DNA of 64,000 nucleotides from Escherichia coli (lineage in GTDB: Bacteria; Pseudomonadota; Gammaproteobacteria; Enterobacterales; Enterobacteriaceae). Below, one piece after another: positions 128 to 7,094 of this stretch. The position numbers were made by a program, and so were the translations under genes. The notes under the pieces were generated by a model. It was given only the letters and a program-made list of their open reading frames with translations, was not told where the DNA came from and made no database searches. Within the stretch, counting starts at the first letter, position 1. Every line of letters begins with the position of its first letter. Where the stretch lies: NCBI RefSeq assembly GCF_003334405.1, contig NZ_QOWM01000016.1. One strand, given 5' to 3'.

Positions 128-3140
<3,013 letters not shown>

Positions 3141-4050: not shown

Positions 4051-4899
4051 GTGGCGCATCAGTTAAAACTTCTCAAAGATGATTTTTTTGCCAGCGACCA
4101 GCAGGCAGTCGCTGTGGCTGACCGTTATCCGCAAGATGTCTTTGCTGAACATACACATGATTTTTGTGAGCTGGTGATTGTCTGGCGCGGTAATGGCCTG
4201 CATGTACTCAACGATCGCCCTTATCGCATTACCCGTGGCGATCTCTTTTACATTCATGCTGACGATAAACACTCCTACGCTTCCGTTAACGATCTGGTTT
4301 TGCAGAATATTATTTATTGCCCGGAGCGTCTGAAGCTGAATCTTGACTGGCAGGGGGCGATTCCGGGATTTAACGCCAGCGCAGGGCAACCACACTGGCG
4401 CTTAGGTAGCATGGGGATGGCGCAGGCGCGGCAGGTTATCGGTCAGCTTGAGCATGAAAGTAGTCAGCATGTGCCGTTTGCTAACGAAATGGCTGAGTTG
4501 CTGTTCGGGCAGTTGGTGATGTTGCTGAATCGCCATCGTTACACCAGTGATTCGTTGCCGCCAACATCCAGCGAAACGTTGCTGGATAAGCTGATTACCC
4601 GGCTGGCGGCTAGCCTGAAAAGTCCCTTTGCGCTGGATAAATTTTGTGATGAGGCATCGTGCAGTGAGCGCGTTTTGCGTCAGCAATTTCGCCAGCAGAC
4701 TGGAATGACCATCAATCAATATCTGCGACAGGTCAGAGTGTGTCATGCGCAATATCTTCTCCAGCATAGCCGCCTGTTAATCAGTGATATTTCGACCGAA
4801 TGTGGCTTTGAAGATAGTAACTATTTTTCGGTGGTGTTTACCCGGGAAACCGGGATGACGCCCAGCCAGTGGCGTCATCTCAATTCGCAGAAAGATTAA
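4051..4899 (+). CDS. rhaR: AraC-family activator of rhaSR
   Basis: Track ORF 3877..4899 extends upstream into rhaS; the currently accepted 282-aa product starts at GTG 4051 ([13 protein letters not shown]...), an older 312-aa model starts at ATG 3961. AraC-type HTH at the C-terminus. Confidence 0.85.
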
Positions 4900-5930
4900 T
4901 TCGCCATGCCGATGCCGACGATGTTAGCGGCGACAATAATCACCACACAACCGAGGCTCAACACCGTTACCGGACGGCGTCCTGCATTGTTCCACTCTTT
5001 CAGCACCAGCCCGACGATACCGCCGCACAATACATAGAAACTCATATGCAGCATCCAACTGATGTAGTCATACTGCGCCGGAATGCGGGCGTGGCCCCAG
5101 GCATAGAAAAAGAATTGCAGATACCACATCAACCCGCCCAGTGTCGAGAGTAACACATTGTGAATGATCAGCGATTTTGCCAGCGAGAAGTCGGCTTTTA
5201 GCGACAAATCCTTCACTTTTGCCAGACGAATAAAACAGAAACCGAGGTTAATGATCGCGCCGCCGCCCATGATGACAACATAGCTTGGCAGAGCGACATA
5301 CAGTGGATCGACGCCAAGTGCGGCAGCGGCTTCATGCATCGGTTTTGCGGCGTTCATCGCAAAGGACATCCCGGCAGAGAAAATGCCGCACATCACCGCC
5401 AGCACCAGCCCTTTTTTCAGATTGAACTCTTCGGCTTTAATGCCCATCTTGCGCTCTTTCAACTGCCCGGCGCGAGTTACAATCCCTACGCCAATCAGCG
5501 CCACCAGAACGCCGAGCAACGTCATGCGTCCGCCTTCGGTGCTAATCAACACATCGAAATTGCCGTTGATAATTGGCGTCATCAGCGTACCGACAATCAA
5601 CGTAATGCCAATGGCGATGCCAATTCCCATCGACATGCCGAGATAACGCATGGTCAGGCCGTAGTTGATATTACCGATCCCCCACATAGCGCCGAACAGA
5701 AAAACAGGCAGTAGCGTAGAGAGACTAAACGAGCTGTAATACGCCCAGAAATTCGGTAGTAACAGGGCGCTGATGGCCCACGGCAGAATAATCCACGAAA
5801 CAATCCCACCGACTGACCACATGGTTTCCCATGACCATTTTTTTACTTTTTTGAACGGAGCGTAAAAACAGGCTGCACTGGCCGCGCCGATCAAATGCCA
5901 AAATATCCCCATCGTAATCGCGTTACTCAT
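4896..5930 (-). CDS. rhaT: L-rhamnose-proton symporter
   Basis: 344-aa polytopic membrane [37 protein letters not shown]...; stop codon overlaps the rhaR stop. Confidence 0.95.
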
Positions 5931-6121
5931 CTTCTTATCCTCATCATTTTTCGTCGCGTCACATCTCCGACGAGATGAGTGTAAAAATCGTGCTGTCGAT
6001 TAACCTTTCGCCTGTTGCCGCCGTTGTCGATTTACTGGCAATCACGGCATTAAGTGGGTGATTTGCTTCACATCTCGGGCATTTTCCTGCAAAACCATAC
6101 CCTTACGAAAAGTACGGCATT

Positions 6122-6160
6122 GATAATCATTTTCAATATCATTTAATTAACTATAATGAA
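6122..6160 (+). promoter_or_regulatory. sodA promoter with putative Fur box and -10 TATAAT
   Basis: GATAATCATTTTCAATATCATTTAATTAAC resembles the Fur consensus GATAATGATAATCATTATC; TATAAT at 6152..6157, about 60 bp upstream of the sodA ATG. Confidence 0.5.
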
Positions 6161-6214
6161 CCAACTGCTTACGCGGCATTAACAATCGGCCGCCCGACAA
6201 TACTGGAGATGAAT

Positions 6215-6835
6215 ATGAGCTATACCCTGCCATCCCTGCCGTATGCTTACGATGCCCTGGAACCGCACTTCGATAAGCAGACCATGGAAATCCACCACAC
6301 CAAACACCATCAGACCTACGTAAACAACGCCAACGCGGCGCTGGAAAGCCTGCCAGAATTTGCCAACCTGCCGGTTGAAGAGCTGATCACCAAACTGGAC
6401 CAGCTGCCAGCAGACAAGAAAACCGTACTGCGCAACAACGCTGGCGGTCACGCTAACCACAGCCTGTTCTGGAAAGGTCTGAAAAAAGGCACCACCCTGC
6501 AGGGTGACCTGAAAGCGGCTATCGAACGTGACTTCGGCTCCGTTGATAACTTCAAAGCAGAATTTGAAAAAGCGGCAGCTTCCCGCTTTGGTTCCGGCTG
6601 GGCATGGCTGGTGCTGAAAGGCGATAAACTGGCGGTGGTTTCTACTGCTAACCAGGATTCTCCGCTGATGGGTGAAGCTATTTCTGGCGCTTCCGGCTTC
6701 CCGATTATGGGCCTGGATGTGTGGGAACATGCTTACTACCTGAAATTCCAGAACCGCCGTCCGGACTACATTAAAGAGTTCTGGAACGTGGTGAACTGGG
6801 ACGAAGCAGCGGCACGTTTTGCGGCGAAAAAATAA
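6215..6835 (+). CDS. sodA: manganese superoxide dismutase
   Basis: Track ORF 6209..6835 trimmed to [36 protein letters not shown] (206 aa); Mn/Fe-SOD signature residues. Confidence 0.95.
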
Positions 6836-6892: not shown

Positions 6893-6918
6893 CCATCGCC
6901 AACGGCGGTGGTTTTTTT
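6893..6918 (+). terminator. Intrinsic terminator downstream of sodA
   Basis: Hairpin CCATCGCC-AAC-GGCGGTGG followed by TTTTTTT. Confidence 0.7.
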
Positions 6919-7094
6919 GTGATCAATTTCAAAATAAAAACAATGATCCGATAAAAATAAAACAGCGTTTCAATTGATGTGGTTTTGATCACTTTTATTG
7001 ATTAAATGAATGTCTATCTTCGTTTCCATCAACACTGATGCTCCATTGAGGAATTACGCATCAGCCCTTAAAAATATGCCGACAGGTGATGGAA

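Follow-up and report, generated by a model that had tools for sequence, protein, structure and literature searches.

Control of the rhaT gene of Escherichia coli by RhaS and CRP has been textbook knowledge since 1996. Its publication goes back to Via et al. 1996, whose finding that both proteins activate rhaT is relayed in PMC9429829 and PMC5566544, and rhamnose was seen to induce the gene in RNA-seq (PMC11434101). RhaS binds to inverted 17-bp half-sites, which lie 16 bp apart at rhaBAD and have been named rhaI5 and rhaI6 at rhaT (PMC11983282). A single CRP site is listed for the rhaT-sodA gene pair (PMC3105977). We are highly confident that positions 6003-6072 of the DNA analyzed here are this known rhamnose- and cAMP-controlled activator region of rhaT, read on the minus strand; its geometry and conservation were observed in the present analysis, and the action of RhaS and CRP is taken from the literature. 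Since the rhaT promoter is already in use as an expression tool, it is of little matter for discovery, and what we offer are small clarifications, in that real motifs are sorted from chance ones and the inverted look of the half-sites is explained.

The window, that is, the whole stretch of 64,000 nucleotides (64 kb) that was analyzed, is the E. coli rha locus, with rhaA, rhaB, rhaS, rhaR, rhaT, sodA and kdgT in K-12 order according to the list of open reading frames and the RefSeq annotation. Of 5426 complete E. coli genomes, 5425 contain a match to the 501-base stretch 5800-6300, where the annotation shows the spacer separating rhaT (minus strand) from sodA (plus strand). The divergent promoter region measures 284 bp (5931-6214) and contains all three motifs flagged in a preliminary description of this DNA, the 16-mer CCTTTCGCCTGTTGCC (6004-6019), the CRP-type site TGGGTGATTTGCTTCACA (6055-6072) and the decamer CATTTTCCTG; each string named in that description is present at its position. 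The features of the region are collected in Table 1. Further along the window, a CRP-like site with one mismatch, TGTGATCAATTTCAAA, lies between sodA and kdgT (6918-6933), upstream of kdgT. In the laboratory strain E. coli Origami2-DE3 (locus L089) the match to the spacer begins only at about 6022, and yjdM and crfC replace rhaT upstream of sodA. The breakpoint of this chromosomal rearrangement (about 6021/6022) falls between the RhaS half-sites, so that rhaT is cut off from the distal half-site and the CRP site.

Table 1. Features of the rhaT-sodA region in window coordinates; exact boundaries of rhaI5 and rhaI6 were set by alignment
Feature	Position	Strand	Basis or remark
rhaT coding sequence, L-rhamnose/proton symporter	4896..5930	minus	list of open reading frames and RefSeq annotation
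5'-terminal stem-loop of the rhaT leader (E. coli: GUCG...CGAC)	5953..5971	minus	per-species folds
Inferred start of rhaT transcription (G as the seventh base past the -10 hexamer)	5971	minus	-10 spacing
rhaT -10 hexamer TACACT	5978..5983	minus	TAnnCT invariant in 80 loci; primers in the PMC9429829 supplement
Promoter-proximal RhaS half-site rhaI6, GGCAACAGGCGAAAGGT	6003..6019	minus	about -48 to -32, overlaps the -35 region; contains the 16-mer 6004-6019
Inter-half-site spacer, 17 bp, variable sequence	6020..6036		conservation alignment
Distal RhaS half-site rhaI5, TTAATGCCGTGATTGCC	6037..6053	minus	about -82 to -66; alignment to rhaI1
CRP site core GGTGATTTGCTTCACA (rhaT orientation TGTGAAGCAAATCACC)	6057..6072		centre 6064.5, -93.5 from the inferred rhaT start
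Decamer CATTTTCCTG, regarded as a coincidental repeat	6080..6089	plus	-109 to -118 from the rhaT start, -84 to -75 relative to the inferred start of sodA
sodA promoter TTTTCA-16-TATAAT	6130-6157	plus	promoter scan
sodA coding sequence, divergent neighbour of rhaT	6215..6835	plus	RefSeq annotation

A RhaT scan with one genome per species gave 80 Enterobacteriaceae loci, and the 330 bp upstream of rhaT were aligned for 79 of them together with the window, 80 sequences in all. Bases with little or no variation were TGTGA in the CRP site, TTGCCA at the end of the distal half-site, GGCA and AAGGT at the two ends of the proximal one and TAnnCT in the -10 hexamer. The composite arrangement CRP-N3-half-site-N17-half-site-N19-(-10) was found in 78 of the 80 loci, the two exceptions having CGTGA in place of TGTGA. 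Mean information amounted to 1.71 bits for the -10 hexamer, 1.27 bits for rhaI6, 1.07 bits for rhaI5, 1.05 bits for the CRP site and 0.43 bits for the spacer between the half-sites; the decamer, with 0.29 bits, had the lowest value in the rhaT-sodA spacer. About 19 of the 80 loci have no sodA promoter upstream of rhaT (those without one are L011, L013, L027, L034, L045, L053, L061, L065-L069, L071, L073, L075, L078, L080 and L081), and there the CRP and RhaS sites are still in register. Since the composite is kept where the sodA promoter is absent, the CRP and RhaS elements belong to rhaT. Seven more genomes of E. coli and one of another Escherichia species were compared. Their substitutions fell in the spacer between the half-sites, the N6 of the CRP site, the surroundings of the decamer, the leader and the -35/-10 spacer, and none was seen in the half-sites or in the CRP pentamers. 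The E. coli polymorphisms at 6024 and 6027 likewise lie in the inter-half-site spacer, with none in the half-sites. One locus in the collection, titled Chryseobacterium sp. 18061 (L072), is almost the same in its rhaT-sodA region as Citrobacter sp. 18056 (L062), which belongs to the same project, and the label or assembly of L072 is probably contaminated.

The CRP call of the preliminary description was right. The core agrees with TGTGA-N6-TCACA at 9 of 10 positions; the window has five sites with no more than one mismatch to this consensus, the core itself and the CRP site of rhaBAD among them. Across the 80 loci TGTGA is invariant or nearly so and TCAC is nearly invariant; the gap between the CRP site and rhaI5 is 3 bp in 78 of 80 loci, and the CRP centre lies 81 bp from the rhaT -10 in 77 of 78. 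On the sodA side, the CRP site most often lies 93 bp from the -10 of that gene, and the extremes are 82 and 174 bp.

The 16-mer, which the same description had likened to a motif of the rhaBAD promoter, proved to be part of a true RhaS half-site. It shares 12 of 16 bases with that motif, CTTTCCCTGGTTGCC (reverse complement at 2942-2956), in an ungapped comparison by eye, and in rhaI6 the bases GGCA and AAGG are invariant in all 80 loci, with the following T nearly so. Chance does not account for the 16-mer and the CRP site, whose key bases are invariant across the 80 loci and whose register to the -10 hexamer is fixed. The distal half-site, which had been overlooked, shows TTGCCA invariant or nearly so in the same loci and agrees with rhaI1, read in the same orientation, at 11 of 17 bases, as counted from the -10-anchored alignment; the spacer between the two half-sites is 17 bp in 77 of 78 loci. 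But for the length of the spacer, the arrangement is that of rhaBAD, with inverted 17-bp half-sites, here 17 bp apart (inner motifs TTGCC/GGCAA), and the proximal one ending at about -32, and the RhaS region at rhaT spans -32 to -82 when the start is taken as G5971. A half-site matrix was built from 45 orthologous rhaBAD half-sites, E. coli excluded (consensus AYCTTY-N6-YTGMCA). Because orthologous sites are not independent, this matrix is over-fitted and its ranks are supporting evidence only, among them those of rhaI6 (ACCTTTCGCCTGTTGCC), which fits the consensus well (score 6.7, rank 17 of 127,966 windows), of rhaI5 (score -7.4, rank 877 of 127,966), in which only the inner part TTGCCA fits and the outer part diverges (TTAAT, not AYCTT), and of the rhaT composite site, which ranked 7 in the window.

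The orientation of the motifs, presented earlier as inverted relative to rhaBAD and hence puzzling, holds no anomaly, as RhaS sites are inverted repeats whose proximal half mirrors the distal one. rhaI6 occupies the position of rhaI2 and points toward the promoter, and its sequence is closer to rhaI1 (GGCAA...AAAG) than to rhaI2 (GTCAG...GAAGG). A good match to rhaI1 therefore appeared in the opposite orientation, which is the expected arrangement.

The alignment of the rhaT, rhaBAD and rhaSR promoters that had been proposed as a check was carried out anchored on the -10 hexamer. Read in the promoter direction, rhaT has the layout TGTGAAGCAAATCACC, CAC, TTAATGCCGTGATTGCC, 17 bp, GGCAACAGGCGAAAGGT, 19 bp, TACACT; rhaBAD has TGTGAACATCATCACG, TTC, ATCTTTCCCTGGTTGCC (rhaI1), 16 bp, GTCAGTAACGAGAAGGT (rhaI2), 19 bp, TAGACT; and rhaSR has ATCTTGAAAAATCGACG, 17 bp, CGTCGAAAATTTAAGGT, 19 bp, TACTAT. 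In all three, AAGGT stands exactly 19 bp upstream of the -10 (6003-6007 in rhaT, 2909-2913 in rhaBAD and 3080-3084 in rhaSR). The arithmetic used for rhaT puts the CRP centre at -92.5 in rhaBAD and at -111.5 in rhaSR. These values agree with what we take to be the figures from Egan laboratory work, which supports the positional method. The spacer between rhaI1 and rhaI2 (2926-2941) is 16 bp long in E. coli, in neighbouring Escherichia species and in Salmonella arizonae, and has one more base in most other aligned genera (rhaBAD, loci L003-L074). Judged by these alignments, RhaS evidently can tolerate both 16- and 17-bp spacing of its half-sites.

We infer from the -10 spacing that rhaT transcription starts at or near G5971, about 7 nt after TACACT. 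Primers listed in the supplement of PMC9429829 are in keeping with this: MM13/MM14, described as inserting directly downstream of the -10, insert after TACACT, so that the -10 of Via et al. falls at 5978-5983, and MM15/MM16, described as inserting downstream of the start site, insert after CATCTCGTCG, which puts the published start within 5977-5968. The hairpin of the leader begins at most 3 nt from the inferred start in 83% of 64 distinct orthologous leaders, and its stem varies by genus (GTCGG/CCGAC, GTTGG/CCAAC, GTCAGATGA/TCATCGAC and GCCGG/CCGGC). Taken by itself, the E. coli hairpin is weak (-4.3 kcal/mol, z = -1.2). The structure could be a transcript-protecting hairpin at the 5' end of the mRNA. 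Separately, CTCATC (5974-5979, minus strand), which adjoins the -10, is complementary to GATGAG (5938-5943, minus strand), which overlaps the rhaT ribosome-binding site, and a few species show double changes (CTCGT/ACGAG and CTCAAC/GTTGAG). An outer leader pairing CTCAT/AUGAG that would occlude the ribosome-binding site was considered and rejected: the 5' arm lies ahead of the inferred start and overlaps the -10, and double changes are seen in only two of the five pairs. The CTCATC arm would be part of the rhaT RNA only if transcription began earlier than the inferred start.

On this layout, a dimer of L-rhamnose-bound RhaS would bind the inverted repeat formed by rhaI5 (6037-6053) and rhaI6 (6003-6019), 17 bp apart. 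As at rhaBAD, RhaS on rhaI6, the AAGGT end of which lies at about -32 and overlaps the -35, would be expected to contact region 4 of sigma-70. cAMP-CRP bound 3 bp upstream of rhaI5, with its centre at about -93.5, would co-activate through the alpha C-terminal domain, and such co-activation would therefore make rhaT subject to catabolite repression. The RNA would begin at or close to G5971, some 7 nt past TACACT (5978-5983). For rhaT, both the protein contacts and the exact start site are here drawn by analogy with rhaBAD.

The decamer was a different matter. It had been put forward first and with the most emphasis as a motif of the rha regulon, and we judge it to be a coincidental word with presumably no part in the RhaS/CRP system: it is unconserved, lies upstream of the CRP site and falls outside the -32 to -82 region of RhaS. 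A real regulon element, serving as an extra RhaS or RhaR contact common to rhaBAD, rhaSR and rhaT, seems exceedingly improbable. The window holds only two exact copies, 6080-6089 (plus strand) and 2925-2934 (minus strand), both in spacers of the rha regulon and against 0.24 expected window-wide; compared spacer with spacer, however, a shared word of at least 10 bases arises between the rhaT-sodA (284 bp) and rhaB-rhaS (287 bp) spacers in 16.6% of dinucleotide-preserving shuffles, and of 637 natural 284-bp stretches taken from this DNA, 97 share such a word with the rhaB-rhaS spacer. With sharing this common (about 15-17%), the match is not beyond chance. A 9-mer variant, CATTTCCTG, does stand in the rhaSR promoter at 3011-3019, as the preliminary description had it, but it overlaps by 2 nt the flank of a TGTGA-N6-CCGCA site (2997-3012) that is conserved across genera and is taken to be the rhaSR CRP site. 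The word occupies a different position, orientation and context in each of the three promoters, at about -57 to -48 and toward the promoter in rhaBAD, at -109 to -118 and away from it in rhaT, and at about -105 to -97 in rhaSR. At rhaBAD it consists of the last nine bases of the inter-half-site spacer, a segment that varies in length and sequence among genera, and the first base of rhaI2. In a mutational scan of rhaBAD, the informative positions clustered in the half-sites plus one further base each (PMC11983282), so that the decamer reaches into informative positions by its last two bases at most and otherwise falls between the half-sites. Scored as a RhaS half-site, the decamer bore no resemblance to the consensus, with a best matrix score of -11.6 (rank 2244), and it showed neither a location within -32 to -82 nor conservation among orthologues. 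All eight aligned E. coli genomes have it intact, which speaks for it, and yet it reads CATTTCCCTG in the closest Escherichia other than E. coli and is the least conserved segment of the spacer in the 80 loci.

The decamer might instead be a recent addition specific to E. coli, such as a contact for the alpha C-terminal domain or a weak auxiliary site bound by RhaS or by a different member of the AraC family. Such a role is conceivable because lack of conservation in other genera is compatible with a lineage-specific function, and if true the site, sitting between the shared CRP site and the sodA promoter, could link signals of rhamnose or of stress to rhaT or to sodA, and this in E. coli only; we give it hardly any credence. 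The sodA side of the spacer is densely regulated, and several global regulators act there. Given this established knowledge of sodA, the position of the decamer at -84 to -75 relative to the inferred start of sodA and its invariance in the sampled E. coli genomes, it could be the site of a global regulator of the divergent sodA promoter in E. coli, unrelated to rhamnose. We consider this very unlikely. The sodA promoter and the block upstream of it (6100-6165; alignment columns 137-232) are strongly conserved across genera (1.26 bits), but the block ends near 6100, and 6073-6099 is poorly conserved (0.29-0.66 bits). Just upstream of the block many genera have TAAGGTTATAAC...GTTAT, and E. coli has GTAAGGGTATGGTTTTGCAGG instead. 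The best matches to the marbox AYNGCACNNWNNRYYAAAYN in the spacer, with three mismatches each, are 5987-6006 and 6114-6133, the latter overlapping the sodA -35; none of these best matches overlaps the decamer, and the one that could serve sodA lies away from it. Searches of the literature for footprint positions at sodA and for the sodA marbox yielded no site at the decamer.

The register of RhaS at rhaT called for similar weighing. PMC9429829, citing Via et al., states that the RhaS site of rhaT is shifted so that it ends 1 bp upstream of the -35 without overlapping it, and argues from this supposed 5-bp shift that RhaS faces a different side of the helix at rhaT. In our own alignment the site overlaps the -35 region, at odds with that statement. 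Binding in a register different from that at rhaBAD, off the -35 and activating through another face or contact, is favored by the Via et al. annotation as drawn in PMC9429829 and by the half-site spacing, 17 bp at rhaT against 16 bp at E. coli rhaBAD. The extra base is no peculiarity of rhaT, however, as rhaBAD of most other aligned genera also has it relative to E. coli, and the 19 bp between AAGGT and the -10 are the same in rhaT, rhaBAD and rhaSR and are kept in 78 of the 80 rhaT loci. We therefore regard a different register as very improbable. Since the distance from AAGGT to the -10 is constant across the rha promoters, the apparent shift probably is an artefact of which hexamer was chosen as the -35 and not one of geometry. 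The evidence that the register of RhaS relative to the -10 is the same at rhaT as at rhaBAD and rhaSR bears on the mechanistic argument of that engineering paper (PMC9429829).

Among the described systems, rhaBAD has a promoter much like that of rhaT. In each of the two promoters the 17-bp half-sites are inverted, AAGGT stands 19 bp from the -10, 3 bp separate the distal half-site from the CRP core upstream of it, and TTTTTA leads into the -10. They differ in the half-site spacer, 16 bp in rhaBAD and 17 bp in rhaT, which places CRP at -92.5 and -93.5, respectively; in the outer part of the distal half-site (ATCTT in rhaBAD, TTAAT in rhaT); and in the proximal half-site, where rhaBAD has GTCAG and rhaT the rhaI1-like GGCAA. 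rhaSR resembles rhaT in having inverted half-sites 17 bp apart and AAGGT 19 bp from the -10, whereas its half-sites are those of RhaR, its inner motif is TCGAC and not TTGCC, and its CRP site lies 21 bp instead of 3 bp from the distal half-site. The rhaT promoter of Via et al. 1996, as far as it is relayed in the later papers, is the same locus with the same -10 and the same RhaS and CRP elements, and differs only in how the RhaS site is annotated relative to the -35. At araBAD, as at rhaT, an activator of the AraC family overlaps the -35 and CRP lies directly upstream; AraC, however, uses direct repeats 4 bp apart together with looping, whereas the RhaS promoters have inverted repeats 16-17 bp apart and no loop (PMC11983282).
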